The position numbers and the translations under genes are program-made. This document shows positions 3,272 through 35,314 of a stretch of DNA of 64,000 bases, piece by piece (the first letter of the stretch is position 1; the number at the start of each line of letters is the position of its first letter). The stretch is taken from NCBI GenBank assembly GCA_963793305.1, contig CAWBZV010000003.1:480001-544000 (forward strand). The letters are read 5' to 3'. The notes beneath the pieces are model-generated. The model was not told the origin of the DNA. It saw only the letters and a list, made by a program, of their open reading frames with translations, and did no database searches. Source of the stretch: an uncultured Gemmatimonadales bacterium. GTDB taxonomy: Bacteria > Gemmatimonadota > Gemmatimonadetes > Gemmatimonadales > Gemmatimonadaceae.

Positions 3272-3314
3272 TAGAGTCATCGCGCTGTGAGGGTGAATCT
3301 TTCGCGCCCGAGGT

Positions 3315-3608
3315 ATGGGTATGCCACACGACCGATTCGCCGTCACACGGCTCACGCCGGCACAAGGGGTCCGACTCGAGCATCAGGGCAGCCAGCACCT
3401 GCTCGTGAACACCAGGAATGGTGCGCGCTGTGTGCTCAATGCGTTGGGCAAGCGGATCTGGATGCTGCTGGCCGGTCGGCCGACGTTTCCAGCGCTCGTC
3501 GGCGGATTGGGTGGCGCGTACGATCAGCGCCGGGGTGACTTAGTGCGCGACGCCGGGCGTCTGCTGCTCGCGTGGCAAGAGGCCGGCTTGATCACTTGGA
3601 CAAGCTAA
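3315..3608 (+). CDS. PqqD-family RiPP recognition element (stand-alone RRE)
   Basis: LLVNTRNG..VLNALGKRIWMLL...Y.....LVRD...L...GLI pattern, about 95 aa. Confidence 0.7.
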   Translation: MGMPHDRFAVTRLTPAQGVRLEHQGSQHLLVNTRNGARCVLNALGKRIWMLLAGRPTFPALVGGLGGAYDQRRGDLVRDAGRLLLAWQEAGLITWTS

Positions 3609-4447: not shown

Positions 4448-4458
4448 CTCTGTCGGCC

Positions 4459-4540
4459 GTCACGCGTCGATCTCGCGTGACTCCGAGGTGCAACTCTGTC
4501 CCAATCGCGCAACTCTGTCCACCACGGCCGATTCCTGTCC
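4459..4540. promoter_or_regulatory. Intergenic hairpin plus direct repeats (candidate regulator sites)
   Basis: Inverted repeat gtcacgcg/cgcgtgac (4459-4481); GCAACTCTGTCC at 4490 and 4509; partial CTGTCC at 4535. Confidence 0.45.
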
Positions 4541-4566
4541 GAAGAGGACGTTGGTAGACTGACGCC

Positions 4567-16575: not shown

Positions 16576-17705
16576 ACGGGTTTCACCGCACCTTCCCACC
16601 AGTGCGCATCGAGAGCTTCTTGTAATTGGTTTTGGACACCCAACCAGTCCCACCGGCTGCGTTGCCGGATGAACCGCATCGTCGGATACCACGGCGTGGT
16701 ATCGGCGAAGCCCCATTGGAAGTCACCGGGAAAGGGGAGAAGAGTCAGCGTTGGCGCACCGAGTGAGCCTGCCAAATGAGCGACAGAGGTGTCGACGGTG
16801 ATCACACCGTCGAGACTCGCGATCAAGTTGGCCGTGTCCGCGAATGACTCGAGTGGCGGGTCCGGCAACCGGAGGAATCGCTTATAGATAAAAGCCTCGT
16901 CCGCCCGTTCGCCGACCTGCAGGCTATAGAATTCAACATCGGGTCGCCAAAAGAACGGCATGAGAACGCGCAAGGACAACGAGCGCTCCATGTGGTCGAA
17001 CCACCCGCTGCACGCCCATGCGAGTCCGAGACGAGCGGGGTTCGTCCGTTCCGGCAACGTCAGCGGCGAGGGGGCTGACCGGCGCACGAAGGGCGGCAGC
17101 GAACCAACCAGTCGGGGCAGGAGGCTGGCGTTCAGCGCGCGATCAAAGTGGGCGTCGGTCCTGGTGCGATCCCACGCCTGCATGCCCGACAGGTGACCGA
17201 AGTTGTACTCAAAAAATCGTATCAAGTTCGCGTCGACGGCCCAGAAGATCGGCGCCGATACTCTATCGTGCAGCGCTTCGGCGAAGCGCAGCCAGCTAAT
17301 TGTTGCGCCGTAGTCAGTGAGCTCCGCGACGAGGAGCGTCTTTCCGGAGAGGTCTTCGACCCCATCCCACCAACGATCCACACCCGGAGGGAGAAACTCG
17401 GGATTGGTCGGCCATGACACGTCTTGCCAACCGTTCCAGTCGCCGAGCCGCTTCAGCGCGTCGCGTCGGTCAGCGGTGCTTTTGTCCGAGTCGTGCGGTC
17501 GAGTCAAAGCGAGAGCTACACCCCAGCGCCAGAGAGGGATGGAACCACCATCCAAGCACGCGTTGGCGAGCCGGTAGAGATGTACGGGGTTCTCGCGCTC
17601 GCGGCTGGCATGCGCGACGTATAAGTCGATCCGATGCGTCTCCGGGAGGTCCCGAAAGGCGGCGCGGCAGGCCTCGAAGTAAAAGGCGACGTTGTTCGTG
17701 GTCAT
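16572..17705 (-). CDS. TPR/GT9-like glycosyltransferase paralog 2
   Basis: WDGVEDLSGKTLL, VDTSVAHLAGSLG, TPWYPTMRFIRQ; GD motif degenerate (TDYGA). Confidence 0.75.
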   Translation of the reverse strand: MTTNNVAFYFEACRAAFRDLPETHRIDLYVAHASRERENPVHLYRLANACLDGGSIPLWRWGVALALTRPHDSDKSTADRRDALKRLGDWNGWQDVSWPTNPEFLPPGVDRWWDGVEDLSGKTLLVAELTDYGATISWLRFAEALHDRVSAPIFWAVDANLIRFFEYNFGHLSGMQAWDRTRTDAHFDRALNASLLPRLVGSLPPFVRRSAPSPLTLPERTNPARLGLAWACSGWFDHMERSLSLRVLMPFFWRPDVEFYSLQVGERADEAFIYKRFLRLPDPPLESFADTANLIASLDGVITVDTSVAHLAGSLGAPTLTLLPFPGDFQWGFADTTPWYPTMRFIRQRSRWDWLGVQNQLQEALDAHWWEGAVKPV

Positions 17706-17774
17706 CCTAAATCACGGCTCCCGGTCAGAACGACGAGCATGCGAAAGTGGCGCGGCGACGCGGCTCATCCTGGT

Positions 17775-19650
17775 TCACCGATACCCAACCGCCTGCAGCT
17801 CGAACAGCTCAGCATACAAGCCGTTCTGCTTCAGGAGGTCTTGATGCCCGCCGTCCTCGACGACGGAGCCGTGTTGGAGAACCACGATGCGGTCGGCCAT
17901 GCGGATCGTCGAAAATCGATGCGAGATGAGCATGGCCATCCGGCCGGCCATCAACTCGGAAAAGCGCAGAAAGACCTCGTACTCGGCCCGAGCGTCCAGC
18001 GCCGCGGTCGGTTCGTCGAGAATAAGCAGGTCGGCAGCCCGCAGGTACGCACGCGCCAAGGCAACTTTCTGCCATTCCCCGCCGGACAGATCGACGCCGT
18101 CATCGAACCGTTTCCCGAGCATCTGGCGATAGCCATGCGGAAAGCGAGGAATCAGAGTCGATGCGAGCGAATCTTCGGCGGCCGCGATGATCGACGGGAC
18201 GATAGTCGCGGCCGGCTCGGTTCCCGGTTCGTGGCCCGCCACAGCGTCGAGGTACGACCGCGTCTCATCGATTCGACCGACGCCGATATTTTCGTCGAGC
18301 CGCATGTCGTAGCGGACGAAATCTTGGAAGATCACGCCGATCGCTTGGCGAACGGACCCCAGGTCGTACTCACGGAGATCCAAGCCGTCGAGCAGAGATG
18401 CGGCCTTCAGTCGGGTCGTAGAGGCGAGCGATGAGCTTGGCGATCGTCGTCTTGCCAGCTCCATTCTCACCGACAAGCGCGAGGCGCTCGGCCCGGCGCA
18501 ACTCGAAGTTGATGCCGCGGACGGCCCAACGATCGGTCCCAGGATATCGGAATCCGACACTCTCGAACACGAACCCATGTCGGATGGGTGACGGAACCAA
18601 CGGTGCGCGCGGCTTGCTGACGATCGTCGGGCGGATCTCGAAAAACAGGAAGAGATCGCGCAGGTAGAGCGACTGCTCGTACACATCGCGCGCCTGGTTC
18701 ACCGAATTCTGAATGATCGATCGCACCTGCATGAAGGCGCCAGCTAGGAAGGTCATCGACCCGAGCGTAACCGCGCCGCTCATGGTCGCGATCAGGATCA
18801 TGGCGTAGCCGCCGTAATACCCCAGGGTTCCGAGGAGGGCCAAGCTGGCGCCGGCGCGAGCGCGTCGCACCGCGAGTTTTCTATTTTCATTATAGTAGCG
18901 CTGGGCAAGCGTCCGGAATCGGTCTCGGAGCCAGATGCCGAGTCCGAAGAGCTGCACCTCTTTCGCCGTTCGGTCGCACGCCCCGACGTACCGTATGTAA
19001 TCGAGCTCGCGACGCTGCGGTGTCCAACTGTAGGCAAGCGAGTAACTGAGCCCCGCGAAGTGCGCCTCGCTCACCAGGCCCGGGATCACGGCCACGAGCA
19101 GGATCACGAGCAACCACGGGTTGAACGCGAGCATAGCCGCCGCAAAGCCGACGAGGGTGAGCCAATCTTGCCCCATCGACAACAATTGGCCAATGAGATT
19201 GATGCGGGACGTCGATTGTTGGCGTGCGCGCTCGAGCAAGTCGTAGAACGTCGGATCTTCGAACTGCGTGAGGTCGAGCGTCGCGGCGTGCGCCATGATG
19301 CGCTCGCTGACGCGGTTGACGAAGAGGTCACCCAGGAGCGAGTCGACCAGCGCCGACAAGCGACCAACGACCTCTGCGGTGGCGACGATCGTCAGTTCGA
19401 TCGCAAACAGTGTCCACATCCGGTGCCAATCCGGATTGTGCCCTCGACCGGCCGCGACGACATCGATGATCAACTTGCCGACCCACAGCGTCGCGAGCGG
19501 GAGCGCGGCCCGAATGACGCGGAAACCACCCATCGTGAGGGCGAGCGCCGGGCTGGTAGACCAAACCAATCTCAGTAAGCGCGGGATGTATCGCAGCCCC
19601 GCTAGTCGCCGACGGAATCCGGACGGTAGGCCGTTGGCGCGGGTCGACAT
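17775..19650 (-). CDS. ABC exporter, fused permease-ATPase (frameshift at about 18397)
   Basis: TM domain; GENGAGKTT, LSGGEWQK, LILDEPT, SHRFST. Confidence 0.9.
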
Positions 19651-19775
19651 CGTGAGGATCAGGATATCGCACCCGCAAGCATCGTGGAATACCGCGGCGG
19701 CGGGATCGCCGATGCTACTCGAAGCCCGCCTGTACGGTCACCGAAGGGGCTCCGTCTTGAAGGTACCATCGTAGG

Positions 19776-20126
19776 ATGAGCGAAGAACACGGTAATGGTG
19801 CGATGCTATCTGGCGACCATCTCGTCACGATCCCGGAGACGGTCGCGTCGATGCAGGTTGGTGAGGACACGCTCGTCCATGATATGATCACGCAGCGGTT
19901 GCACCGACTCGATGCGGTCGGAACGCGGATCTGGGAGCTGATCGATGCTGGCCACACGGTCGAGGTCATCGTGCAGACGCTCGCCAAGGAGTACCAGTTG
20001 CCGGACGACATGCCACCATCACAGTTACATGACGATGTGTTGGCAATAGTGTCCGACCTGCATCGCCTCGGCTTGGTCCTCAGCGATCACGCCGGCTCGA
20101 GGATCTTGAAATCTACCAACTGCTGA
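19776..20126 (+). CDS. PqqD-family RRE (stand-alone)
   Basis: RLDAVGTRIWELI...IVQTLAKEY...DVLAIVSDLHRLGLV. Confidence 0.8.
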   Translation: MSEEHGNGAMLSGDHLVTIPETVASMQVGEDTLVHDMITQRLHRLDAVGTRIWELIDAGHTVEVIVQTLAKEYQLPDDMPPSQLHDDVLAIVSDLHRLGLVLSDHAGSRILKSTNC

Positions 20127-21306: not shown

Positions 21307-22455
21307 ATGGGCGAGCTAGCGACCTTTGCGGACTCTTGTGAGGTATTCTTTGCCCAGGCGCAGCTGGGAGAGCGAGCCTCGGGGCGGCTAAGCGCTATTC
21401 GTTGCGATCCAAACAATCCGATACTCATCCATGAGCTCGCCGGCGCGGCCTGGCTCAATGGGCGACCAGATCTGTGGTTGCAGGGCACGGCACTGGCTCT
21501 GCAATTGCCGCACGAGACACCTCAATCACTATTCGTACGCGCCTGCGCAAAACTACGGCTTGGTAATTGGTCTGGATGGCGAGATTACGAAGCGCGGCAT
21601 ATCGGGCCCGGCACCGTGACGTCGGAGTCGGCATATGCACGGGCCTTGGCCTGGACAGCTGTGACGTGTGAGAGTGTCGCCGATCTTCGCGACAAGACAC
21701 TGCTCGTGATTGAAGAGGGCGGATTCGGCGACAGCATTCAATCGATGTGTTTTGTTCCTGCGCTCGTCGCCGCCGCCGAGCGCGTCATCCTGATGGTCAA
21801 GCCGGAGTTGGTCACGTTTTTCGAGCACAATTTCGGAAGCGTGGCCGTGATCGCATCGTCCGAGCATCCCCGCTATGATGGCTTCGATGAGTACATCTGG
21901 AGCTCATCGGTACCGACATTGTTCGAGGAGATTCCGCCATTCGAACGGCTGACCGCTCCCAACCCTCGGCGACGATCTCGTGCCGGGACTGAGCCGTCGC
22001 GCGTGGGGATCTGTTGGGCGGCTCGGGTGTGTGAGCCACATGTGGCCATTCGCCGCTCGATTACCGCGCTCGAAGTGCTGAAGCCACTCTTCGCGCGTAC
22101 CGACATCGTTTGGCAGAGTCTTCAGATCGGTCCGCGCGCCAGCGACATAGCGACGTATCCAGCTGTGCAGGGCGCGGATCCGTCGATAACGACGTTCGCC
22201 GACCTGGCGAATCTGGTATCGGAATTGGATTGCGTCGTGAGCGTCGACACAGCGGTTGCCCATCTCGCGGGAAGGCTCGGTGTCCCGATCTATCTATTGC
22301 TTCCCTACGCAGCAGATTGGCAATGGGGGCTCCATGACACCACGCCATGGTACCCATCGATGCACCTTGTTCGCCAGCAAAGACTCGGCGACTGGGAGAG
22401 CGCGATCGACCTGCTGTTGCGAGAGCTCAGCGGCCGAGGGGTCGCCGTTGGCTGA
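21307..22455 (+). CDS. TPR/GT9-like glycosyltransferase paralog 3
   Basis: EEGGFGDSIQ, VSVDTAVAHLAGRLG, TPWYPSMHLVRQ. Confidence 0.8.
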   Translation: MGELATFADSCEVFFAQAQLGERASGRLSAIRCDPNNPILIHELAGAAWLNGRPDLWLQGTALALQLPHETPQSLFVRACAKLRLGNWSGWRDYEARHIGPGTVTSESAYARALAWTAVTCESVADLRDKTLLVIEEGGFGDSIQSMCFVPALVAAAERVILMVKPELVTFFEHNFGSVAVIASSEHPRYDGFDEYIWSSSVPTLFEEIPPFERLTAPNPRRRSRAGTEPSRVGICWAARVCEPHVAIRRSITALEVLKPLFARTDIVWQSLQIGPRASDIATYPAVQGADPSITTFADLANLVSELDCVVSVDTAVAHLAGRLGVPIYLLLPYAADWQWGLHDTTPWYPSMHLVRQQRLGDWESAIDLLLRELSGRGVAVG

Positions 22456-23461
22456 TTCGCCGGCTCCGTGCCTCGAGTACCTGGCCGGAATCGACGCGGA
22501 TCACGTGGCGATTGGGGCCGCTATTGCTCGCGCGCCTCTCGATCCATTGCCCGTGTACGACGTGGCGGACTTGTGCCGAAGTCACGGACGTATTGATCTG
22601 TGGGAACGAGCGGTCAACTGGGCGACTGAGCTGCCCCACGATTCTCGCAAGCAGATCCACCGTCGTGGCGCCATGAAGCTCCTCAGAGAGGATTGGTCGG
22701 GTTGGCTCGACTTGGAATCGAGAATCTACGATCCCGCCGCTGGTTATCTCGATACGGAGTTTGTGCGCCACCTCCGATACGAGACGCTGTTCTGGAACGG
22801 CCGCGACGATCTTGCTGGGCGGACGATCCTCGTGATCGCGGACGGAAGCCTTGGCGACTGCCTGCAAATGTTGCGATATGTGCCATTGGTCGCGCGCCGA
22901 GCGGGGCGAGTGATCCTGAGCGTGAGGCCCGAGGCCGCCCGCTTTGTCCGTGAGGTCGTCGGATCGGCGGTGACTATGATGCTCCACGGGGCCAGTCCAG
23001 ACATTGCTTATGACTACTATGTATGGTTGATGTCATTGCCAGCCCTGCTCGACACGCTCCCGCCACCTCTGCCTGTGCCGTTCCATACAACCCCAATTTC
23101 CTGCACGTATGGAGTGTATTGGACGAGCGATCTGTCTTATGAAGGTGTGCGATGGCTCAACCTGCGTGAGCCGGCGGCACCACTGGTCACTCTTTTCGAG
23201 GCGGCGAAGGTGGTGACGACGCTCAGTGGGATCGTGACCATCGATACGACGGTGGCGCACCTCGCCGGAACGCTTGGTGTACCCACATGGTTGCTGCTGG
23301 AGACGCTTGCCGATGCCCGTTGGGGACTCGGCCAGACGACGCCCTGGTATCCTTGCATGCGAATAATCCGTCAGCAGACTCGAGGCGAGTGGACTTCCGT
23401 CATTGCCGAACTACGAGCATCGATAGACGCCAGCCTCGCTTCGCCTTCGCAGTGCGCGTAG
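22448..23461 (+). CDS. TPR/GT9-like glycosyltransferase paralog 4
   Basis: ADGSLGDCLQMLRY, IDTTVAHLAG, TPWYPCMRIIRQ; shorter C-domain. Confidence 0.75.
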   Translation: MADSPAPCLEYLAGIDADHVAIGAAIARAPLDPLPVYDVADLCRSHGRIDLWERAVNWATELPHDSRKQIHRRGAMKLLREDWSGWLDLESRIYDPAAGYLDTEFVRHLRYETLFWNGRDDLAGRTILVIADGSLGDCLQMLRYVPLVARRAGRVILSVRPEAARFVREVVGSAVTMMLHGASPDIAYDYYVWLMSLPALLDTLPPPLPVPFHTTPISCTYGVYWTSDLSYEGVRWLNLREPAAPLVTLFEAAKVVTTLSGIVTIDTTVAHLAGTLGVPTWLLLETLADARWGLGQTTPWYPCMRIIRQQTRGEWTSVIAELRASIDASLASPSQCA

Positions 23462-23523: not shown

Positions 23524-24648
23524 ATGGCGTCCATAAGTCTGATCGCTGATCTCCTCAGAACCTGTGCCGATCGACTGCCGGCGGATAGCGAGCCGGATTT
23601 CGAGGAGGTGCGCTCCTCGATGGTCGCGAAATCCAACCTGCTGGCGCTCTATCGCCTCGCGGCGTTGTGTCGCAAACACGGTTATCTCGACCTGTGGCAT
23701 CTCGTCACCAGAAGTGCCCTCGCCATGCCGCATCACGCGTTCGAGCATCTGTACCATCGCGGCAACGCGAAGCTTCTGCTCGATGATTGGTCTGGTTGGG
23801 TCGATCGAGAAGTCCGAGTCCATGATCCCGCGGCTGGATACTTGGCATCCGAATACGTGCGCCAGATCCGCTACAAAACGATCGAATGGGATGGCCAAGA
23901 AATCATCGCAGACAAGACCATCTTGATTCTGGCTGACGGTGATTGTGGTGACTGCATTCAAATGCTCCGTTTCATACCACCACTGGTCGAGCGTTGCCGT
24001 GGTGTCATACTGAGCGTGCGGCCCGAGATGGCCTCATTGGTCAAGCATAACGTTGGCCATCTTGCCTCCATCACGTTCCATGGCATCGACTGCGGCCCTT
24101 TCGAGCGATATGCGTGGTTGATGTCACTGCCCGCTTTGTTCGGCTGTCTGCCGGTATTCACGCCAATGACAGCGCTCAGGCCCAGGACGAGGGCGACGAA
24201 TGCTCGTTACCCCGTCGACATTGGTGTGTGTTGGTCCGAGGGCGGTGATCGCTCAATCGCGCTCGATGAACTTGCGCCACTCTTCGGGCGTCGCGATTGG
24301 CGATGGCATAGCCTTCAACTGGCAGGCGCTGGTGAAGGCGATGGCGACTCCTTTCGCGGGTGTCCGGCGATTCGCCTGCGCACTCTCGCCGATGCCGCGA
24401 ACTACGTGATGGGACTGGACTGTGTCGTGAGTGTCGACGCGGCAGTCGCGCACCTCGCCGGCGCGCTGGGCCTGCCGACGTTGACATTGCTGCGCTCGTC
24501 GGCAGATGCGCGATGGGGGTTGAACGATACCACGCCGTGGTATCCGTCCATGCGGCTGATTCGTCAACGCGCCGCAGGGGATTGGCGAAGCGCCATCCAG
24601 GCACTGGGCGCCGGTATCGAGGCGATCGCGGTCGACCTCGCCGCCTAA
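23524..24648 (+). CDS. TPR/GT9-like glycosyltransferase paralog 5
   Basis: ADGDCGDCIQMLRF, VDAAVAHLAG, TPWYPSMRLIRQ. Confidence 0.8.
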   Translation: MASISLIADLLRTCADRLPADSEPDFEEVRSSMVAKSNLLALYRLAALCRKHGYLDLWHLVTRSALAMPHHAFEHLYHRGNAKLLLDDWSGWVDREVRVHDPAAGYLASEYVRQIRYKTIEWDGQEIIADKTILILADGDCGDCIQMLRFIPPLVERCRGVILSVRPEMASLVKHNVGHLASITFHGIDCGPFERYAWLMSLPALFGCLPVFTPMTALRPRTRATNARYPVDIGVCWSEGGDRSIALDELAPLFGRRDWRWHSLQLAGAGEGDGDSFRGCPAIRLRTLADAANYVMGLDCVVSVDAAVAHLAGALGLPTLTLLRSSADARWGLNDTTPWYPSMRLIRQRAAGDWRSAIQALGAGIEAIAVDLAA

Positions 24649-25787
24649 TGGGTATGCCATCCTCCGCTGGGGTCGTGGAATGGGTCGATGCATGCCGACA
24701 CACTTTCGCCGATCGCGCCGAGGCCTACCGAGTCGCGTTGTACGCGTCACTCGTGGATCCTCAGGGCGATACGCCAATACCTCTGTACCGCCTCGCGAAA
24801 GCCTGCCTGGATAGTGGAGAGTGGTTGCTGTGGCACCAGGGAGTCATGTTCGCGTTCACCCTTGAACACCGAACGGCTCAATCACTCTGCGAGCGAGCGC
24901 TCGCCAAGCTCAGGTTAGGCGACTGGTCCGCATGGCGCGACTATGAGGCTCATGCAAAAAGCCCCGCCTTCAGCGTCGCCCACGCAACGTGGCTTCGCTG
25001 GCGGTACCCGCTATGGGACGGTACCCAGGATATTCGGGATCAAACACTCCTCGTCCAACGGATGGGCGGCTATGGCAATGTGATCTGGTCGCTGCGGTTC
25101 ATTCCACCCATTGCAACACGCGTTCGCCGGCTCATCTGGGATACCAGTCCGGCGCTCATGGATTTTGTGCGATACAACATGAGCCATCTGGCCGCGGTGG
25201 AATCAGTCGATCGCGACCCGCCCGACTTGGACTTCGATTGGCATGTCTGGTGTATGTCGCTTCCGCACGTCAACGGCGGGATACCGCCGTTCGTTCCGCT
25301 CACGGCTCCAGATCCAATCCAATGGCCTCGCTCCCCTGAAAGGCGACTGCGAGTTGGTCTGTGCTGGGCATGCAGCGACGAGGCGCTCGATCAACTGGAG
25401 CGGTCCATTGCATTGAGTTTCTTGGCGCCGCTTTTTTGGCATCCGGGCGTGGAGTGGTACAACCTGCAGGTCGGATCGAGAGCGCACGATAGCGACTACT
25501 ATCCAGGCGTCAAGCAACCACCATTTCCGCTCCGCACATTTGTCGACACCGCGAATTTGCTGGTCGGGTTGGATTGCGTCATCTCGGTGGACACGGCTAT
25601 CTGTCATCTAGCGGGGAGTCTCGGCGTGCCAACGCTGACACTACTCCGCTGTACCGCTGATGCGAAGTGGGGGCATCTCGACACGACGCCTCTCTATCCC
25701 TCCATGCGCTTGATTCGTCAACGGACTCCGGGCGATTGGCTCGGGGTGGCCGAGACCGTGCGTGAGGAACTCAATGCCCGTCTCTGA
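24648..25787 (+). CDS. TPR/GT9-like glycosyltransferase paralog 6
   Basis: TAATG coupling; WDGTQDI, GGYGNVIWSLRF, VDTAICHLAG. Confidence 0.8.
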   Translation: MGMPSSAGVVEWVDACRHTFADRAEAYRVALYASLVDPQGDTPIPLYRLAKACLDSGEWLLWHQGVMFAFTLEHRTAQSLCERALAKLRLGDWSAWRDYEAHAKSPAFSVAHATWLRWRYPLWDGTQDIRDQTLLVQRMGGYGNVIWSLRFIPPIATRVRRLIWDTSPALMDFVRYNMSHLAAVESVDRDPPDLDFDWHVWCMSLPHVNGGIPPFVPLTAPDPIQWPRSPERRLRVGLCWACSDEALDQLERSIALSFLAPLFWHPGVEWYNLQVGSRAHDSDYYPGVKQPPFPLRTFVDTANLLVGLDCVISVDTAICHLAGSLGVPTLTLLRCTADAKWGHLDTTPLYPSMRLIRQRTPGDWLGVAETVREELNARL

Positions 25788-26697
25788 TCCGTACCGACTC
25801 TATCAAGTCGCCGAATCGCATCGAGAGTGCGGCGATGAGGAAAGTTGGAAAGAGATCGTGATGGACGCCTTTCAGCTCCCTCATCGGACCAAGCAACAAC
25901 TCTTCTATCGAGGCCAAGCGAAGATCGCGCTCGGTGATTGGTCTGGTTGGGTCGACCGCGAGGCGCGACTGTTCAACCCCGACGAACAATTGTGGCGTTG
26001 CTCGTACTGGCGCCAGGTACGGGCGAAGACGAAGGCTTGGGATGGCAAAGAGGATATCCGGGACAAGGCACTGTTCGTCATCGCCGATGGAGATGATGGC
26101 GATTGTCTGCAAATGCTCCGATTCATTCCGGATCTCACCGCGAAGGTCGACACGCTCATCCTCGGTGTCAGTCCTGCACTGCTGTCACTCGTGAAGCACT
26201 TTTTCGCCTCAAAGGTGACGGTGACGTTTCGAGAGGTCGATCACGGGCTGCCGTTCCAGCGGTATACATGGATCATGTCGTTACCAGCGCTCTGCGGCGC
26301 ACTTCCGCCGATCGTGCCATTCACCGCGCCCAGACCGCAATCGCCCCCTCGCCTGGCAGATGGGCGTTTTCACGTCGGCCTGTGGACAGCGCCAGAATCT
26401 GTTCCTCCTGCGACACTCGCCGGCATAACAAGCGCACTGGCACGTGACGACATCCAATGGCACGACCTGCGACTGGGCACCGGCGCCATCCGAACGTATG
26501 CTGATGCCGCGAACGTTATCGTGGGCCTGGACTACGTGGTGAGTATCGACTCGCCAATTGCCCATCTCGCGGGTTTGCTCGCGGTGCCGACGCTCGTGTT
26601 TCTCAGCTGCCGAGCTGATCTCCGGTGGGGATTGACCGAGACAACGCCATGGTATCCCTCGATGCACATCACCCGACACTTTGGAGACTCCGTATGA
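25774..26697 (+). CDS. TPR/GT9-like glycosyltransferase paralog 7
   Basis: WDGKEDI, ADGDDGDCLQMLRF, IDSPIAHLAG, TPWYPSMH. Confidence 0.75.
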   Translation: MPVSDPYRLYQVAESHRECGDEESWKEIVMDAFQLPHRTKQQLFYRGQAKIALGDWSGWVDREARLFNPDEQLWRCSYWRQVRAKTKAWDGKEDIRDKALFVIADGDDGDCLQMLRFIPDLTAKVDTLILGVSPALLSLVKHFFASKVTVTFREVDHGLPFQRYTWIMSLPALCGALPPIVPFTAPRPQSPPRLADGRFHVGLWTAPESVPPATLAGITSALARDDIQWHDLRLGTGAIRTYADAANVIVGLDYVVSIDSPIAHLAGLLAVPTLVFLSCRADLRWGLTETTPWYPSMHITRHFGDSV

Positions 26698-26822
26698 CAA
26701 CCGCGTATCGAAAGCCGACGATCCTCTGCCTTGGCGCCGCCGAGGTCTTGACTCGTGGAGGGTTCGGAAACAGGCCCGAACTCCGCACAGGTCCAACTAG
26801 CATCTCCCTGCTCGATCTCTGA
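26694..26822 (+). CDS. Lasso peptide precursor A0: MTTAYRKPTILCLGAAEVLTR|GGFGNRPELRTGPTSISLLDL
   Basis: GGAG RBS, ATGA overlap with the GT7 stop; Y-17/P-14/G-8/T-2 leader; core G1..E8; homologous to the 32.5-33.2 kb array. Confidence 0.88.
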   Translation: MTTAYRKPTILCLGAAEVLTRGGFGNRPELRTGPTSISLLDL

Positions 26823-26831
26823 GGCAGGTAC

Positions 26832-27992
26832 ATGCCATCGAGCGAACAGCTCCTCGATGAGTGTATTCGTCGGTTGAGTCCAAGCAATGCGGCGGCGCTA
26901 CTGCCACGGTTCCGATCGGCATTCGAGCGGTATCCCATCGCGCCGCCGCTCCTGTATAGCATCGCGACCCTGTGCCTGCAGTTCGGATACGAGGAGTTGT
27001 GGGAGCACTACGATCGTCTCGCCTTTGCCCTGCCTCACGCCACCAACGAGGATTTTTATTTTCGATCCGTGGCGAAGCTTCGTCGGAGCGACTGGTCCGG
27101 GTGGTTGGACCGAGAAGCCAGGCTCATCAGCCCGCATGAAGCGCCGATCTGGTACCCGCACTTCCTCGAAATGCAATGGACGACGCGCGCCTGGGACGGT
27201 GTAGAACCGATTCAGGATAAAACACTGTTGGCGATCGCCAATGGCGGGTTCGGCGACTGCTTGCAGATGATACGGTATATGCCGCGTCTGGCGGCAATAG
27301 CTGGTTCGCTCATCATCGCGGTGCGGCCGCAAATCCTCTCGTTGGTCGAGCACAATTTCGGGCGGATCGCCACGGTCGTGTCGACAGAGCGCTTACCATT
27401 GATACCCTTTCAGCGGTACGTGTGGATGATGTCCCTTCCCGCATTGATCGGATCCATACCGGCCTTCGACGCGCTCAGGACTCCCAGCGCGACTCCGGCC
27501 GCTCCGCGTGAGGGCCGGTTGCGAGTCGGTCTCAATTGGGCCGGCACTTCACATCATCCGAACGATCGCGACGACAACCTCCGCTCCATCACACTCGACG
27601 ACCTCTCACCGCTGCTGGAGCTCGAGTGGGTCACATGGTATAGCGTGCAAGTTGGGCGGTGGGCCTCCGACGCCGATCACAATGCCCGCATCGTGCAACC
27701 CTCGACGCCGATCCGAAGTTTTGAAGATTCCGCCAATCTCGTCGCTGCTCTAGACTGCGTCGTGACGATCGACACGGCGGTTGCGCATTTGGCCGGCAGC
27801 CTCAATGTACCAACGTTAGTACTCCTGACATGGCTGCCGGAATTTCGCTGGGGTCTCGTCAGCGAGCGTACGCCATGGTACCCAAGCCTTCTGTTGATCC
27901 GACAAACGTCGCCCGGCGACTGGCCTGGCGTGTTCGATCGAACCTTCCAGCATCTGCGGGCGCTTTATACCGGGGCAGCTGCTTCAGCGTAA
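26832..27992 (+). CDS. TPR/GT9-like glycosyltransferase paralog 8
   Basis: ANGGFGDCLQMIRY, RVGLNWAG, IDTAVAHLAG, TPWYPSLLLIRQ. Confidence 0.8.
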   Translation: MPSSEQLLDECIRRLSPSNAAALLPRFRSAFERYPIAPPLLYSIATLCLQFGYEELWEHYDRLAFALPHATNEDFYFRSVAKLRRSDWSGWLDREARLISPHEAPIWYPHFLEMQWTTRAWDGVEPIQDKTLLAIANGGFGDCLQMIRYMPRLAAIAGSLIIAVRPQILSLVEHNFGRIATVVSTERLPLIPFQRYVWMMSLPALIGSIPAFDALRTPSATPAAPREGRLRVGLNWAGTSHHPNDRDDNLRSITLDDLSPLLELEWVTWYSVQVGRWASDADHNARIVQPSTPIRSFEDSANLVAALDCVVTIDTAVAHLAGSLNVPTLVLLTWLPEFRWGLVSERTPWYPSLLLIRQTSPGDWPGVFDRTFQHLRALYTGAAASA

Positions 27993-29105
27993 GTCTCATC
28001 GAGCAGCGTATTCACCTGAGCGATCGAGCTCGACCAGTCGCCTGGTGCGCATTGCCGAATGAGCCGCATCGCGGGATACCACGGCGTGACGTCCCCTAGT
28101 CCCCACCGCCAGTGGGAATCGTATTGCAAGAGCAGCCATGTTGGAACGCCGAGATTCCCCGCCAGAATGACACACTGAGGTGTCCACGCTGACCACGTAG
28201 TCCAGTTCCGTGATCAGGTCCGCCGTGTCGCCGTAAGTGACGAGTGGCGGATCAGGATTGATCAATGCGGGGTAATCGTTGGCGTCCGCGACGCGATCGC
28301 CGACTTGGAGGCTGTACCATTCCACGTCATCTCGTGCGAGCAACGGCACCGTCTCGGCGATAGGCATTGACCGATCTGGATCCTGCGTGAAGTCGGGACT
28401 GCCGGCCCAGCAGACGCCGGCCCGGATGGGTCGCGTCCGTGGCGGCATTTTGGGACGCCGTCGTGGTGCGGCAAGCGCGGTGAAATCGGGAAGCCGGCCG
28501 AACGTACCTGGCAGCGACATGCTCCACACATACCGGTCGAACGGTATCGTGGGTTTGATCCCATCCAGCCATATTTTGGCGAGTGAGCCGAAGTTGAATC
28601 GAGCGAGAGGGGCCAATCGCGGATACACCATCATGAAGACGGCGCTGGCTATTTCGGTCAACGGCGGAATGAATCGCCACATCTGGAGGCAATCGCCGTA
28701 TCCCTGCTCCGGCAGCACCAGGATAGACTTGTCCGCGAGATCCTCCTTGCCGTCCCACATGCAATGCTTCCAGCAGATATCTCGATATTTGTCCAGATCT
28801 TCGATGGTGTCCGGCGCCCCCAGGCGCGCGCTGTACTCAGCCCATCCGTTCCACTCGCCGCGCTCGATCTTGGCCAGGGCGCGCGCGTAGGTCTGTTGTG
28901 GTGTCACGTGGGGTAGCGCCAGCGCGAGATCGACCTGGTGCTGCCAATCGGGATCGCCTCGCCGTCGAAGCGTGAACGCGAGGAGATAGCGCGGCATGGG
29001 GTTGGCCGGCTGCTGCTCGGCGACGGTTGTCAATTCTTCCGCCGTATAAATGGTGCGGGGGCAACGTCGGTGTGTCGGCACCGGTTCGGAGGTCGGCGCC
29101 GTCAT
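27965..29105 (-). CDS. TPR/GT9-like glycosyltransferase paralog 9 (frameshift at about 28167)
   Basis: Best-conserved EQGYGDCLQMWRF; GVCWAGSP; VDTSVCH then HWRWGL..TPWYPAMRLIRQ in the adjacent frame. Confidence 0.8.
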
Positions 29106-29449
29106 GGTTCGGCGTGACCAGAGGCGACGTTGGGCTCGGTTTCCAGCAATCCGTATTCGCTGAGCGCGGTGACGATCGTCAACACATCGCGTTGCACTTG
29201 CCCCGGCGCGACATCCACGGGCATGGCGTATTCGGCTTCGATCGTCGCGACGATTGATCGTATCGTCGCGCCGCCTTCCAGCAATTCCCAAATGCGGCTG
29301 CCAATGTCATTGAGCCGGTAATTTGCGTGAGTTTGAAGATTGTGAACCACGGTATCGGTATCACCTGGCGCGGCCACCGCATATGCGGAAACCGTGACAC
29401 CGCTGTTGATATCGAGTCGTGCGCGTGTCGTACCTTCAAGCTCGCTCAT
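29102..29449 (-). CDS. PqqD-family RRE coupled to GT paralog 9
   Basis: NYRLNDIGSRIWELLE...IVATIEAEY..DVLTIVTALSEYGLL; ATGA overlap with the GT gene. Confidence 0.8.
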   Translation of the reverse strand: MSELEGTTRARLDINSGVTVSAYAVAAPGDTDTVVHNLQTHANYRLNDIGSRIWELLEGGATIRSIVATIEAEYAMPVDVAPGQVQRDVLTIVTALSEYGLLETEPNVASGHAEP

Positions 29450-29787: not shown

Positions 29788-30099
29788 GTGTTGTTCACCC
29801 AGCGACCCCAACCAGTGTCTCCGACGGACGCGCGGCGATATCGCGCGATCCCTGGAGTGCTGTCGGGGTGCTTTGAGGAAGAAACCTTCCTGTTGAGTCT
29901 CGCGACAGGTCGGTACTACAAGCTCGACAACGTCGGAACTGAGGTGTGGCAGCTGCTGCGCCAACCGAAGGCGTTTCCCGACATCGTGAGCGACTTGGGG
30001 CAGGTCTATGACATCGCTCCGTCGACGCTAGCGGCGGATGTCGCTGAGCTCATGAACCGCCTCCTTGGCTACAGGGTCATCGAGGTCATCAACTCATGA
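29788..30099 (+). CDS. Lasso peptide B1 protein (RRE, PqqD family)
   Basis: LLSLATGRYYKLDNVGTEVWQLL...YDI...LAADV; directly upstream of B2 and C. Confidence 0.9.
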   Translation: MLFTQRPQPVSPTDARRYRAIPGVLSGCFEEETFLLSLATGRYYKLDNVGTEVWQLLRQPKAFPDIVSDLGQVYDIAPSTLAADVAELMNRLLGYRVIEVINS

Positions 30100-30484: not shown

Positions 30485-32299
30485 GTGGATACCTTCGTCT
30501 GCCTGATGAATACGCGTGGCCACGGTGTCGTCCCCGAGTCACGTCGGCGGTACGGGCTCGATGACACCGGCTGGCAGTCAGCTGGACCATGCAGCATGTA
30601 TGTCTCAAATGATGGATACGGTCCCGTGGCATCGATCTATCGCGGATCGATTGGCATCGCCGCAGGCATCATCCGCCTCGACAACCGCGTCGAGATCCGG
30701 CGCCAACTTCGGGCAAGCGACGACCAGTCCGATATCGCGTTGGTCGCCGCCGTGCTGCATCGCCGAGGCGTCGACGGCGTGCAGGAGCTCGTGGGCGATT
30801 TTGCGCTGGCGTATTGGGACGTTGCGCGGTCGGAATTGATCATCGCGCGGGACTTCATCGGAGTTCGCCCGCTTTATCGCGTACAGGACGGTGATCTGTG
30901 GGGGTTCGCCTCCCACGCGGGCGTTCTTGGCCGGGGACGGGAGCTGTCGCTCGAATTCGTCGCGGACTACATCGCGTTCAATGTGTCGAGACAGCGCACA
31001 CCATATGCCGGCGTGTTTGCCGTCCCTGCCGGAACCGCCCAGGTGCTCAACGGTCGGCGGAGCACCGAGCATCGGTATTGGTCCGCCTATCGGTTCTCGA
31101 CCGATGATCGGATCGACAGCAACGAGGCGGTCGAAGCGTTCAGGCCTTTATTCACCGAAGCGATTCGGCTGCGTCTGACCGGAAAGCAGGACTGCTGGGC
31201 AGATCTCTCTGGTGGTCTCGATTCGTCATCGGTTGTCTCGATGAGTCAGTGGCTCGCGAAGCACGACGGCGCCGTGCACGGCTTGGCGGGAACCTTGACG
31301 TACGCAGACACGCTCGGCACTGGCGACGAGCGGCCGTACGCGAACGCGGTGATTCGCGATTGGCCTCTGCCGAATGAACAATTGATCGACTACGGATTGT
31401 GGCAGGACGACGGCGAGCCGCCCCTTGTCGCGGATATTCCGGACCAGTCGTCCGCGTCGTACGCTCGAGAGCGGCGAGTCTGTCGGATCGTTCGGTCAGC
31501 GGGCGGCCGCGTGCTATTCACCGGAGTGGGCCCCGATCAAATGCTCTTCGGCAACTATGTGTATTTCGCTGATTGGCTCGTGCGGGGGCGAATTCGCGAG
31601 GCGGCTCGGGGGATGTTTCGACTCGCCGCGCTGGGCAGAGGGTCATTCTGGAAATTCGCGTATGAGAACGCCATCAGGCCGTTCTTTGGATCGCCGGCGC
31701 TGAAACGTGAAGCGTGGCCGGCATGGGTTCGGCCCGAGTTCGCACGTCGATTCGCGATCCACGAACGCAATCCAATGGCGTGGACCCCTCGCGGCCGACC
31801 GGGCCGCTACTTTGCCACGGACCTTGCGGGCAACATCGACATCATCACACATGCGATGATCCGCGGCGTGGTCGGTGATATGCTCGACATCCGGAGTCCC
31901 TTCCTGCATCGCCCGCTGGTCGAGCTCTGTCTGCAACTCTCTCCGCAGGTGCTGGCGAGGCCGCGGGACCAGAAGTGGGTCCTCCGCCAAGCGATGCGAG
32001 GCATCACGCCGGAAGAGGTGCTGGAGAGAAGGACGAAGGGGTTCGTCGACGCGAGAATGCAACGATCGTTTGTCGATGAGCACGATCGACTGAATGTGTT
32101 GCTGGATCATTCGGTACTCGCCGAAATGGGTTGCATTGACGCGCGGCTCGCCAAACAATCATTGGCGAACGTGAAGAGCACGACCCTGGGCGAGAATGGG
32201 CGATTACGACATGCACTGACGCTTGAGACGTGGTTGACGGCGAGATCGGGCCGATGGATCGCACGTGATGTGGCACGGCCGGCGTCTGCGGTGGCATGA
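30485..32299 (+). CDS. Lasso cyclase (asparagine synthetase-like, C protein)
   Basis: GDFALAYWD, ARDFIGVRPLY, DLSGGLDSSSV, RSPFLHRPLVE, KWVLRQAM; no N-terminal catalytic Cys. Confidence 0.92.
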   Translation: MDTFVCLMNTRGHGVVPESRRRYGLDDTGWQSAGPCSMYVSNDGYGPVASIYRGSIGIAAGIIRLDNRVEIRRQLRASDDQSDIALVAAVLHRRGVDGVQELVGDFALAYWDVARSELIIARDFIGVRPLYRVQDGDLWGFASHAGVLGRGRELSLEFVADYIAFNVSRQRTPYAGVFAVPAGTAQVLNGRRSTEHRYWSAYRFSTDDRIDSNEAVEAFRPLFTEAIRLRLTGKQDCWADLSGGLDSSSVVSMSQWLAKHDGAVHGLAGTLTYADTLGTGDERPYANAVIRDWPLPNEQLIDYGLWQDDGEPPLVADIPDQSSASYARERRVCRIVRSAGGRVLFTGVGPDQMLFGNYVYFADWLVRGRIREAARGMFRLAALGRGSFWKFAYENAIRPFFGSPALKREAWPAWVRPEFARRFAIHERNPMAWTPRGRPGRYFATDLAGNIDIITHAMIRGVVGDMLDIRSPFLHRPLVELCLQLSPQVLARPRDQKWVLRQAMRGITPEEVLERRTKGFVDARMQRSFVDEHDRLNVLLDHSVLAEMGCIDARLAKQSLANVKSTTLGENGRLRHALTLETWLTARSGRWIARDVARPASAVA

Positions 32300-32488: not shown

Positions 32489-32620
32489 ATGGCCAAGACC
32501 TATCGCACACCGAGTGTTGTGACACTTGGTAACGCCGAAGTTCTGACGACCGGCTCCCCGAAGGGGAACCACGCCGAGGTGAGGACTGGCTCGACCTCGA
32601 TCACCATGCTGGACCTCTAA
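32489..32620 (+). CDS. Lasso precursor A1: MAKTYRTPSVVTLGNAEVLTT|GSPKGNHAEVRTGSTSITMLDL
   Basis: AGGAG RBS; canonical leader; core G1..E9. Confidence 0.92.
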   Translation: MAKTYRTPSVVTLGNAEVLTTGSPKGNHAEVRTGSTSITMLDL

Positions 32621-32647
32621 CCACTTCTTGACTTAACGGAGACTACA

Positions 32648-32782
32648 ATGACCAAGACCTATCGCACGCCCAGTGTCGTGACACTTGGTAACGCCGAAGT
32701 GTTGACGACCGGCGCACCGAAGCCGTGGAATCACGCCGAGGTGAAGACTGGCTCGACCTCGATCACGTTGCTCGACCTCTAA
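32648..32782 (+). CDS. Lasso precursor A2: MTKTYRTPSVVTLGNAEVLTT|GAPKPWNHAEVKTGSTSITLLDL
   Basis: GGAG RBS; manual translation; leader near-identical to A1; Glu at core position 10. Confidence 0.92.
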   Translation: MTKTYRTPSVVTLGNAEVLTTGAPKPWNHAEVKTGSTSITLLDL

Positions 32783-32899
32783 GAACTTCACCGCAATGCT
32801 CGTAGCACGGCACTAGTGAGACACTGGCGACCATTGGCCCGATCTCCAGCGTTCTCATCGCCCCGACCCCGATCGCGTTCCTGAATCCTTAGCTACTTC

Positions 32900-33028
32900 T
32901 TGACCTTTCGCCCGCCGAGCGCCGTGACACTTGGTAGCGCCGCAGTACTGACGACCGGCATCAACAAGCCGTGGAACGCGAACGAGCCACACGTCGGCTC
33001 GACCTCGATCACCTTGCTCGACCTCTAA
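32900..33028 (+). CDS. Lasso precursor A3 (TTG start, possibly silent): (M)TFRPPSAVTLGSAAVLTT|GINKPWNANEPHVGSTSITLLDL
   Basis: Manual translation; in-frame stop at 32882 upstream; no RBS; Tyr-17 replaced by Phe. Confidence 0.7.
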   Translation: MTFRPPSAVTLGSAAVLTTGINKPWNANEPHVGSTSITLLDL

Positions 33029-33036
33029 GTACCACC

Positions 33037-33169
33037 GTGACCAAGATCTATCGCACACCGCGCGTCATCGCGCTTGGACCCGCCGATCAGCTGACGACTG
33101 GTCTCGTATGCTCGTCCAATAGATACGAGACCATCGGCTCGAACGTCCATCGCGTTGCTCGATCTCTGA
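33037..33169 (+). CDS. Lasso precursor A4 (1-nt insertion at 33142/3): MTKIYRTPRVIALGPADQLTT|GLVCSSNRYETIGSTSIALLDL
   Basis: GTG start; deleting one A from tcgAacgtcc restores STSIALLDL-TGA, ending flush against the convergent peptidase stop. Confidence 0.78.
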
Positions 33170-35314
33170 CTACCGCTTCTCCGCCTCTCCCGCGCGTAAG
33201 TAGGTGTCGAACCACGCCAAGCGTCGTCGCCACACATCGCGAACGTTCGCGGGAGATGTGATGGCGTGACCCTCTCCCCAGTACCGCACGAACTCGACAC
33301 GTTTCCCCTGGCGAGCGAGCGACGAGAACATCTCCTCCCCTTGTTGGATCGAAACGAAATCCATATCGCCCTGAACGATCATCACTGGCGTATCGATCCG
33401 ATCGACGTAGTTGATGGGATTGTTCCTCGCATAACGCAATGCATTCTCCCATGGCGGCCCACCCATTCGAGTCTGGCCTGATTCTCCACCGGGCAGGCCA
33501 CCAATCCAATCTCCAGTGGCGGCGTCTCGGTAACGGCGAAAGGTGGAGAAAGCACCGAATTCCGATATGAGGTCCGACGGAGCACACTCGGCGATGGCGG
33601 CTTTGAACCGATGGGTGAATTCGATGATCCCATACGTGCTATACCCGCCATAGCTACACCCTTCGATTCCAATCCGATCAGGATCGGCGTATCCCATCTC
33701 GATCGTCTTATCCACCGCGGGTAATACGCCCTTCGGCAGATCGATGAAATTGTCACCGGGCTGTGTCCTGTCGCCGACGAACGGCATGCTCGGATACAGG
33801 ACAAGATAGCCAGCACCCGTCCAGAGTGCGTCCTCCAGACTCGGGTTGGTATCCGCCGCGCTTTGTACGCTTCCGTCGTATACGATCGTCACCATGGGAT
33901 ACCGTCGGCCGGCGACGTATCCAACTGGCAGCTGGAGCGTTGCCGTTAACGAATCGCCCTCCATTCCAAGATATCGGAGCGCGATCTTTCGGCCACGATC
34001 GATTTGCTCGGCGCCAGCATTGAGCGTGAGCACGGTATCGCGCTCGTGCAGCACCAAGTCAACTCGACCATCCGGTCGTGCCTGAACTGCAAGCGGTAGC
34101 GGCTTCCGACCTTCGATCGCGGACGGCGTCGCCTCGATCGGCGTTAATACGGCGTCTCCGTGCGCGCTGATCCGATACCACCGGTCGTCCTTCGGCACAT
34201 TGCGCTGCACGTGAACCACTACGGATCGTCCATTGGTTGCCCACACGGGCCGCGCGGGCCCAAAGTTGAATATCTGACTTTCCATGCCGCCGACAACGGC
34301 GTCGAGTGAGCCGGTTGAATCGACCCCCACCCAACTCGGTGACGTGGCACGGTCGAGCGGGATAATCGCTATGCGAAACCCGGGAATGTATTCTCCATAG
34401 AGTGCGGACGTACCCTTCCACTCGGATATCGGCACGGGGACGACAATCGCAAGGGTATGACCGTCCGGAGACACGGCGCCGACGGACGGCCAGTAGTCCG
34501 GAACGTGCCGGTAGTCACCGATGGGAATGGGTGCGAGCGCGGTGCTCGTGTGCGACCTGACGTTGACCAGGGTGAGCTTCAAAGGCGCAAACGATAGCGG
34601 CGGCGCGCCCGGTCCCGCGTCGAGTACGCTGGCAGTCGATACCGTGCCACGTTCCTGCAGTGGCCAGGCGCGTTCGGTGATCCGCTGGGGTTCGGTCGTT
34701 TCGTGATACCACTCGCCGGTCGCGCCAGCAGGAAGCGCGGCGAAAATCAATGTGCTGTCGCTCAGCCACCGGCAGTGGGCGAACGTTGCGCCCTGGACGC
34801 CATCGTACAGCCCACGCTCGTATTGCGCCAACTGCAGCCTGACCTGCTGATCCACGCCTTGTTGCGTCGACAGTTCGAGCCGATCGCGCTGTCGGTCCCA
34901 GACATAGAGGTGAACGTTCTCCCCTCCCTTGCTGGAAAGCATCGCCAGTCGGCGGCCATCGGGCGACCAAACCGGATCCCAGTACCCACTGGCGTCGGAT
35001 TTACCTTGCGTGAGATTCCGGCGCACCTGTCCGGTCGAGGAGAATACCCACACGTCGGACCGCTCGTGCTCCATGCCGGTGTATCGCTCTCCTGGTGTCG
35101 CGGGTCGATCGATCGTGACCGCCACCCAAGCGCTATCTGGGGACGCGGTGACCTGTCGCGGAGCGGGAATCAGCGTGAGCAGATCATTGACCACTGCCGG
35201 TCGCTTGTTCGCGTGAGTGACATTGACAGAACGTGCGACGTGGTTTACTTGCGCTCGAGCCCAGCCCAAGACGAAGAATTGCAATGCGCACGCGAGGGTC
35301 ACCAATTTAAGCAT
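33170..35314 (-). CDS. Secreted S9-family peptidase, putative lasso isopeptidase
   Basis: Signal peptide; WSPDG propeller repeats; GCSYGG, VQGDMDFV, YWGEGH catalytic triad. Confidence 0.85.
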   Translation of the reverse strand: MLKLVTLACALQFFVLGWARAQVNHVARSVNVTHANKRPAVVNDLLTLIPAPRQVTASPDSAWVAVTIDRPATPGERYTGMEHERSDVWVFSSTGQVRRNLTQGKSDASGYWDPVWSPDGRRLAMLSSKGGENVHLYVWDRQRDRLELSTQQGVDQQVRLQLAQYERGLYDGVQGATFAHCRWLSDSTLIFAALPAGATGEWYHETTEPQRITERAWPLQERGTVSTASVLDAGPGAPPLSFAPLKLTLVNVRSHTSTALAPIPIGDYRHVPDYWPSVGAVSPDGHTLAIVVPVPISEWKGTSALYGEYIPGFRIAIIPLDRATSPSWVGVDSTGSLDAVVGGMESQIFNFGPARPVWATNGRSVVVHVQRNVPKDDRWYRISAHGDAVLTPIEATPSAIEGRKPLPLAVQARPDGRVDLVLHERDTVLTLNAGAEQIDRGRKIALRYLGMEGDSLTATLQLPVGYVAGRRYPMVTIVYDGSVQSAADTNPSLEDALWTGAGYLVLYPSMPFVGDRTQPGDNFIDLPKGVLPAVDKTIEMGYADPDRIGIEGCSYGGYSTYGIIEFTHRFKAAIAECAPSDLISEFGAFSTFRRYRDAATGDWIGGLPGGESGQTRMGGPPWENALRYARNNPINYVDRIDTPVMIVQGDMDFVSIQQGEEMFSSLARQGKRVEFVRYWGEGHAITSPANVRDVWRRRLAWFDTYLRAGEAEKR

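Follow-up and report, generated by a model that had tools for sequence, protein, structure and literature searches.

A relocated lasso precursor copy among TPR/GT9-like genes that may glycosylate lasso peptides in an uncultured Gemmatimonadales bacterium

Introduction

Why should a gene for a lasso peptide precursor lie inside a run of putative glycosyltransferase (GT) genes, and does such a placement tell us that the two belong to one pathway? The question is raised by a 64,000-nt stretch of the genome of an uncultured Gemmatimonadales bacterium (assembly GCA_963793305.1, contig CAWBZV010000003.1, positions 480,001 to 544,000), hereafter the window, in which a small open reading frame (ORF), A0, sits between two genes for proteins that combine tetratricopeptide repeat (TPR)-like helices with a fold of the GT9 family. 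There are nine such genes, GT1 to GT9; the last is written "gene GT9" to set it apart from the family. An initial annotation took A0 to be a fifth precursor and its overlap with GT7 to be the strongest sequence evidence that glycosyltransferases and precursors are co-expressed as one pathway. We propose, with a probability of roughly 0.58, that A0 is a relocated fifth precursor copy, likely transcribed with the six TPR/GT9-like genes that flank it, and that these likely glycosylate lasso peptides. The central features are as follows.

25774..26697, + strand: GT7, TPR/GT9-like, 307 aa; short N-terminus as in its orthologue P0015, C-terminal helix missing
26683..26686, + strand: ribosome-binding site GGAG of A0, 7 nt before the ATG and within the last GT7 codons
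26694..26822, + strand: A0, lasso precursor paralogue; predicted leader 1-21 with Thr at -2, core with Gly1 and Glu8, tail end SISLLDL
26832..27992, + strand: GT8, TPR/GT9-like, 386 aa; GT-B fold, predicted catalytic Asp142
32489..33170, + strand: main precursor array, comprising A1 (32489-32620), A2 (32648-32782), A3 (~32900-33028) and A4 (~33037-33170, frameshifted)

Results

A0 is a 42-codon ORF on the + strand (26694-26822) whose 42-aa product reads MTTAYRKPTILCLGAAEVLTRGGFGNRPELRTGPTSISLLDL. Its ATG overlaps the TGA stop of GT7 (26695-26697) as ATGA, its end lies 9 nt before the ATG of GT8 (26832), and 5,667 nt separate it from the start of A1, all in agreement with the initial annotation, which had put the last distance at about 5.7 kb. 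When the 5.72-Mb genome was searched in six frames for the tail pattern S[IT][TSA][LM]LDL followed by a stop, five matches were returned, exactly A0 to A4; because the pattern falls, genome-wide, only at these precursors, we conclude that A0 is not a chance ORF and is a real gene. A called gene whose protein is identical to A0 (42 aa) is on record as P0243, together with two more A0-family precursors, P0244 and P0245 (five matches among 11 candidates), and all seven members of the family end in LDL.

Lasso leaders carry the motif YxxPxLxxxGxxxxxT, in which the Thr stands at -2, and lasso cores have a small residue at position 1 and Asp or Glu at positions 7-9. A0 fits the leader motif at Y5, P8, G14 and T20, with Ile at the Leu position, and fits the core rule with Gly22 as core residue 1 and Glu29 as core residue 8, the Glu being invariant in A0-A3; by the usual lasso register its ring would close between Gly1 and Glu8. 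The curated precursor model NF033522 scored 18.3 bits against A0, where the cut-off is 33. At the protein level A0 is 55, 57 and 50% identical to A1, A2 and A3, respectively, and its DNA is the most distant of the copies (46-54% identity, vs. 57-79% inside the array). A0 and A1 have the same residue at 22 of 41 codons, 15 of these 22 by different codons; together with the proportions of synonymous and nonsynonymous differences (pS 0.81, pN 0.35), this fits an old copy under purifying selection. The shared leader, Glu8 and tail motif show that A0 and the four array precursors are true paralogues, and A0 is very probably translated. The view of A0 as a fifth precursor is thus borne out by its leader, its Glu8, a tail motif found only at A0-A4, and pS/pN.

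Two features of the cores may bear on their chemistry. With the first Thr taken as -2, the ring Glu falls at position 8 in A0, 9 in A1 and 10 in A2, A3, A4 and P0244; cleavage one residue further on would put it at 9, not 10. The fusilassin enzymes accept a ten-residue ring (PMC13352647) and the ring fragment of metanodin is b10 (PMC12670498), and by analogy a ten-residue ring here may have precedent. All five cores of A0-A4 also contain N-x-x-E, with an Asn three residues ahead of the ring Glu. P0245 has Asn at the same place, P0244 has Asp, and this core Asn is a possible modification site.

At the GT7/A0 junction GT7 is truncated at its C-terminus, a point absent from the initial annotation: it ends 12 residues past a conserved YP motif, compared to 24-60 residues in 44 other members of its clade with an intact end. 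P0015, which is 62% identical to GT7 and has the same short N-terminus, keeps 37 residues past YP. GT7 falls short by its last ~20-25 residues, ending exactly where A0 begins; the part lost is equivalent to helix 364-385, which is the last one in the GT8 structure model, and the missing tail was not found in any frame past the junction. The bases just 5' of A0 resemble those 5' of A2, with GGAGACT in both, and A2, like A0, begins ATGA. We infer that the 3' end of GT7 gave way to a precursor cassette that brought its own ribosome-binding site, that the overlap is probably a by-product of this rearrangement, and that the arrival of A0 probably damaged one paralogue, GT7. The joint formed by a cassette starting with ATGA puts a stop in frame in about one case out of three, so the overlap needs no selection, and since GT7 is cut short at that very point while its orthologue P0015 is intact, the overlap is weak evidence of design.

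Two further observations concern junctions of this kind. By eye, a stretch of 11 bases that closes with the ribosome-binding site of the first precursor copy in a metagenomic locus, L026, is identical to the one before A0, which may be chance. A contig of public DNA run X1, from another organism, joins GT7-like to precursor-like pieces (25975>32472 and 32508>32824); the joints have short sides of 27-37 bases, and the contig possibly represents another GT-lasso locus.

The likelihood that A0 is transcribed with its neighbors was judged from the arrangement of the remaining glycosyltransferase genes.

2186..3608, + strand: GT1 (frameshifted), then the third RiPP recognition element (RRE; RiPP, a peptide synthesized ribosomally and modified post-translationally) at 3321-3608, between AraC-family genes
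16572..20126: GT2 (-; Ala at the predicted catalytic position), a frameshifted ABC exporter (-) and the second RRE (19776-20126, +)
21307..22455, + strand: GT3, with an alternative start at 21178
22448..23461, + strand: GT4, with an internal deletion in the C-terminal domain
23524..24648, + strand: GT5
24648..25787, + strand: GT6, with Asn replacing the predicted catalytic Asp
27965..29105, - strand: gene GT9, with a frameshift near 28165; in the orthologue group of the RRE-coupled and RRE-fused glycosyltransferases
29102..29449, - strand: RRE (PqqD, PF05402, E 2e-13), whose stop overlaps the start of gene GT9 as ATGA

GT3 to GT8 and A0 lie on the same strand with successive gaps of -8, 62, -1, -14, -4 and 9 nt. 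A terminator scan of 16-34 kb gave six sites vs. 10.4 expected by chance, none of them on the + strand between 23.2 and 32.4 kb, and a promoter scan gave one site vs. 5.5 expected by chance and was uninformative. Given the common strand, the small gaps and the lack of a + strand terminator-like site in that interval, A0 is very probably co-transcribed with GT7 and GT8.

We then considered what these flanking genes encode. The structure model of GT8 (predicted local distance difference test [pLDDT] 90.2, predicted template modeling score [pTM] 0.89) has a helical region at residues 1-117 that matches consensus TPRs and forms about two TPR-like repeats. The top four rows of a VIA-align comparison were of the GT9 type (WaaC, WaaF and TibC; Z 15-17, root mean square deviation 3.2-3.5, 231-248 aligned residues), and Foldseek agreed, with GT9-type proteins as best matches. 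Asp142 of GT8 aligned with the GD motif of the six canonical GT9 proteins of the genome (hhalign, probability 80%, E 1.6e-6). Of 46 clade members, 43 retain this predicted catalytic Asp, the exceptions being GT2, GT6 and P0012, and all 46 retain a late His in a D-T-x-x-x-H motif. By its model, GT8 is a GT-B/GT9-type enzyme.

The proteins form a narrow clade. The window (2.2-29.1 kb) holds nine of the ten homologous GT genes that tblastn found in the genome, and in a quick tree the clade (37 rows) split from 12 generic TPR-GT9 proteins with an SH-aLRT support of 99. A profile search that scored four candidates per genome matched 95 of 401 family genomes (the unpublished G153 among them), with E <= 5e-146 only in the genome of the window (G000) and in its relatives G001, G004 and G005, and E of at least 7e-72 in the remaining matched genomes. 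A scan of all species genomes returned three clade loci, all in Gemmatimonadaceae. The wider TPR-GT9 family comprised 42,199 sequence clusters in a profile search of 1.84 billion representatives, whose results were dominated by large multi-domain TPR-GT9 proteins. Several of the nearest clusters of short TPR-GT9-like proteins (ESM Atlas, query GT8) came mostly from tailed phages.

If the overlap does not tie the glycosyltransferases to the lasso genes, other observations do so better. These involve the biosynthetic genes listed here.

29788..30099, + strand: lasso B1 (RRE), PF05402
30096..30479, + strand: lasso B2 leader peptidase (NF033537, 53.1 bits vs. a cut-off of 33)
30485..32299, + strand: lasso cyclase C (best match NF033535, 173.7 vs. 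a cut-off of 525)

Besides the start-stop coupling of the RRE at 29102-29449 with gene GT9, the same coupling was present in two relatives: the gene order in G001 is ABC-RRE-GT-B2-C-five precursors, with RRE and GT overlapping as ATGA, and that in G005 is ABC-GT-RRE-GT-B2-C-four precursors, with an overlap of GTGA, so that in both a GT lies between RRE and B2. P0013, a recorded protein, is an RRE-GT fusion whose GT part falls in the same branch as gene GT9 (its single-sequence model, at pLDDT 35.9, was uninformative and was not used). L026 contains a clade GT, a TonB receptor, an S9 peptidase, a lasso-type precursor array and the end of a cyclase, which makes it the fourth locus of lasso type and adds a third family of precursors; clade GTs thus sit in lasso loci of three different precursor families. 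Between G000 and G001/G005, identity is only 33-37% for B2 and C, against 68-92% for the genes on either side. Since the precursor families differ and B2/C have diverged relative to the flanks, the link to the GTs has outlasted exchange of the cargo. The longest contig is 523,951 for both P0244 and three clade GTs, and this identical value suggests that they lie on one contig. By the same criterion, P0003, P0004 and P0249 group with P0244, and P0001 groups with P0015 (5,160 bp).

As a control, 77 generic TPR-GT9 loci among the matches listed were searched for B1 and B2 by tblastn or hidden Markov model; the median length of these loci was 9.8 kb, and 37 reached 10 kb or more. Neither gene was detected in any of them, and three loci had asparagine-synthetase-like matches only. 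These 77 came from 79 loci of the metagenome scan, in which contexts of the clade itself are therefore under-sampled. From the RRE-GT coupling and fusion and the recurrence in lasso loci, we conclude that the GTs and lasso genes probably form one pathway.

Some of the other loci showed features of their own. At L026:18800-20800 (-) there are about six 68-aa precursors with a long common tail ending SRSNE. In G004, a GT and an RRE lie between AraC genes and the contig ends before the expected lasso-gene site; L025 is a 1.7-kb locus.

Discussion

The initial annotation is partly supported: A0 is likely transcribed with GT7 and GT8, and glycosyltransferases and precursors probably form one pathway. 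Its choice of the overlap as the strongest evidence does not hold, since GT7 is cut short there and the synteny that it proposed as a check, GT-precursor-GT, occurs in none of the three other lasso loci with a clade GT (G001, G005 and L026). We regard the placement of A0 as a lineage-specific detail that supports shared transcription and not by itself a shared pathway, for which the start-stop coupling of RRE and GT in the window and two relatives, the P0013 fusion and the association with three precursor families are better evidence.

The opposite-strand unit of RRE and gene GT9 also separates A0's unit from B1-B2-C-A1..A4, so there are at least three transcription units.

Apart from the want of synteny, several points weigh against our reading. 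GT1 is ~26 kb away from B1/B2/C. G000, G001 and G005 represent one genus and one chromosomal site and are not independent, of the 14 lasso B2 loci in six genomes of the genus only three have a clade GT, and no B1/B2 was detected in the examined range of L026. Nine enzymes are more than a core of 21-23 residues needs; GT2 and GT6 are without the Asp and GT7 is cut short. The PF01075 score of GT8 is just under the cut-off (21.7 vs. 22 bits); GT5 scores 26.6, GT6 24.9 and GT7 not at all, and only 34-61 residues match. A lasso cluster of the same genome that is free of GTs has 27-41% Ser/Thr in the last 22 residues of its precursors, and we rejected Ser/Thr-rich tails as specific evidence of glycosylation because that cluster is equally rich. 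Lastly, the genome has hldE-like and gmhA-like genes, of which the gmhA and hldE-kinase matches are below curated cut-offs (two of three matches).

Among the alternatives, the one that survives best, although we think it unlikely, is that the locus is a hotspot whose GT array modifies some other target (a surface glycan, or a protein, the TonB receptor being one example) and that A0 is a copy inserted into GT7 with no enzyme-substrate link. It would account for a GT7 cut short by the arrival of A0 and for the variability of the cassette evident from B2/C in G001/G005, and it agrees with the size of the wider TPR-GT9 family, with the large proteins modified by TibC (the nearest characterized polypeptide-acting fold match), and with the GT of L026 standing in front of the TonB receptor. 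Such cargo would not be expected to show RRE-GT overlap in three genomes and an RRE-GT fusion, a GT within the RRE-B2-C run of G001 and G005, ties to three unrelated precursor families, a control in which B1/B2 are missing from all 77 loci, or purifying selection on A0.

Less probable again is a role in the lasso pathway that is mainly not glycosyl transfer, in which the TPR-like helices grip the invariant LLDL C-terminus as a binding or scaffold device, or a group other than a simple sugar is transferred. The missing Asp of GT2 and GT6, the C-terminal-domain deletions in GT4, GT5 and GT7, the TPR-like N-terminal region and the LDL end common to all seven precursors would suit such a role, but retention of the Asp in 43 and the late His in 46 of 46 clade members, on a fold that is clearly GT9-like, argues for catalysis. 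An assembly error that deleted the GT7 tail and a spacer, making the ATGA overlap an artifact, is very improbable: the window does have several frameshifts and one extra base (20642) absent from an X1 contig, and contigs of runs X1 and X2 leave 26630-26789, including the junction, uncovered, but the errors observed are single-base indels and not losses of 70-100 nt, the missing tail is in no frame past the junction, the ribosome-binding site of A0 is intact, and a contig of X2, a second public DNA run, spans 26790-26940 and joins the last 33 bases of A0 to GT8, leaving A0 within the GT run either way.

Returning to A0 as a relocated precursor copy whose flanking genes act on lasso peptides, we start from what was directly observed (the sequence, position and paralogy of A0) and from the GT-B/GT9-type model of GT8 and propose the following inferred sequence of events. 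A0, with its own ribosome-binding site, would have replaced the 3' end of GT7, creating the ATGA overlap and probably impairing GT7. It would be read through on the GT3-GT8 transcript and its product matured in trans by B1/B2/C to a Gly1-Glu8 macrolactam. A second RRE, coupled or fused to a GT9-type enzyme, would hold the leader and present the still-linear precursor, so that glycosylation may come before or alongside ring closure. In the conserved T/S-T-S-I tail, GTs of the Asp142 type could activate hydroxyls of Ser/Thr to accept sugar from a nucleotide donor; the fold and the hldE-like and gmhA-like genes make ADP-heptose the leading guess. The paralogues may add different sugars, act at different sites or serve as partner subunits. 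Release would be through the ABC exporter, and the product might then be taken back up by the TonB receptor and opened by the isopeptidase.

That at least one GT glycosylates these peptides seems to us reasonably probable. We are doubtful about the bolder proposal that the GT9-fold clade as a whole performs leader-directed RiPP tailoring, an RRE and up to nine paralogues giving heptosylated, multiply glycosylated lasso peptides, some with ten-residue rings. A pseudaminic acid (FlmG-type nonulosonate) donor was also considered and was rejected because the genome has no match for NeuB/PseI; this synthase was not found in the genome, which is 92% complete, and two PF03102 matches were 3-deoxy-D-arabino-heptulosonate 7-phosphate synthases.

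Other genes in the window and genome

33170..41746: S9 peptidase, SusD-like protein, TonB-dependent receptor, FecR and extracytoplasmic function (ECF) sigma factor

The best match of the S9 peptidase was the AtxE2-type isopeptidase, below the cut-off; the SusD-like protein, which has no Pfam match, is one that we take to be such from its position and likeness. The window has four RREs. An AraC-RRE-AraC-AraC module is conserved (window 1278-5652; L017; L018), with a clade GT preceding its RRE in G000 and G004 and not in G001, and could be a peptide-sensing regulator set. The variable cassette starts with a TldD/PmbA protease pair (13655-16716, -), which is downstream of GT2. Members of the TldD/PmbA family remove RiPP leaders in other systems.

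Frameshifts occur at ~2580 (GT1), ~18400-18690 (ABC exporter), ~28165 (gene GT9), ~33135 (A4) and 60981-62253 (a FecR gene), and are likely to be single-base assembly errors. Another splits a Cys-rich ORF at 20087-21171 (-), which has no Pfam match and only atlas leads under 0.9; since the X1 contig is without one base at 20642, this ORF is probably intact in nature and is a candidate for a further tailoring protein. The genes at 50604-55999 (+) form an ordinary histidine utilization operon. Two other lasso clusters in the genome are without clade GTs (G000:C3:764061-767400 and G000:C5:654985); three precursors, whose long tails are rich in Ser/Thr, belong to the first.

Comparison with known systems

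Astexin-type lasso clusters lie in a context of TonB receptor, FecR and ECF sigma factor genes. The window resembles them in its multi-precursor array, convergent S9 peptidase, TonB receptor, FecR and ECF sigma factor, and differs in its split B1/B2, four RREs, ABC exporter, TldD/PmbA pair and GT array. Astexin-type clusters also carry the AtxE2 isopeptidase (PMC13352647).

On the enzyme side, the best fold matches are TibC, a bacterial autotransporter heptosyltransferase (BAHT), and the GT9 proteins WaaC and WaaF, with which the clade shares an Asp base that follows the first strand. TibC uses ADP-heptose to glycosylate polypeptides, and its catalytic base was identified as an Asp by superposition with WaaC (PMC4358343). 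TibC/BAHT proteins have an N-terminal beta-barrel, in contrast to the helical, TPR-like N-terminus of the clade, and they have a conserved four-Cys iron finger, where the invariant and nearly invariant columns of a 28-sequence alignment contained no Cys. The clade GTs are 9-15% identical to TibC, WaaC and WaaF and are not in a lipopolysaccharide or autotransporter locus. FlmG, the flagellin O-glycosyltransferase of Caulobacter, is 596 aa long, 313 of them in its TPR part, and transfers pseudaminic acid to Thr/Ser (PMC7591256). The likeness is one of architecture only, a substrate-binding TPR N-terminal domain joined to a GT-B domain; the clade GTs, at ~380 aa with about two TPR-like repeats, have a far shorter TPR part.

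Glycosylation of lasso peptides has precedent. Pseudomycoidin (psm) carries its sugar on a phosphoserine and requires a nucleotidyltransferase (PMC11912497); the likeness is that of a glycosylated lasso peptide, and a Pfam scan of the 48 window proteins returned no psm-type nucleotidyltransferase. The davasins of Streptomyces davaonensis are O-glycosylated on Ser by IgtG, a polysaccharide-deacetylase/GT2 protein (PMC11912497), and a 2026 review lists Ser glycosylation of lasso peptides, citing the davasin work (PMC13352647). RRE fusions to GT2 (PF00535) are reported in an RRE survey whose main text is without GT9 and one of whose supplements is without PF01075, although its large data tables could hold such a fusion (PMC12710340). 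No GT9-like RiPP tailoring enzyme was found in the literature searched, outside which most subscription papers fall. Lasso glycosylation is thus already known by GT2 or nucleotidyltransferase routes, and it is the RRE-guided GT9-type route that we did not find in that literature. The placement of A0 alone is a modest point. If our reading is true, GT9-type enzymes guided by an RRE would add a class to the RiPP tailoring enzymes that is new and that could be re-targeted by a leader tag, and a branch of the largely uncharacterized TPR-GT9 family (~42,000 clusters) would gain a peptide substrate and with it a direct test of its role.

The davasin cluster with IgtG is likewise a lasso cluster with a glycosyltransferase. 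Domains of the IgtG type (GT2 and polysaccharide deacetylase, by Pfam) were not found in the GT proteins of the window, which are GT-B/GT9-like with TPR-like helices and number up to nine paralogues, where IgtG is a single protein acting on the mature lasso peptide. Unlike IgtG, the enzymes described here are coupled or fused to an RRE, pointing to the leader-bearing precursor as their substrate.

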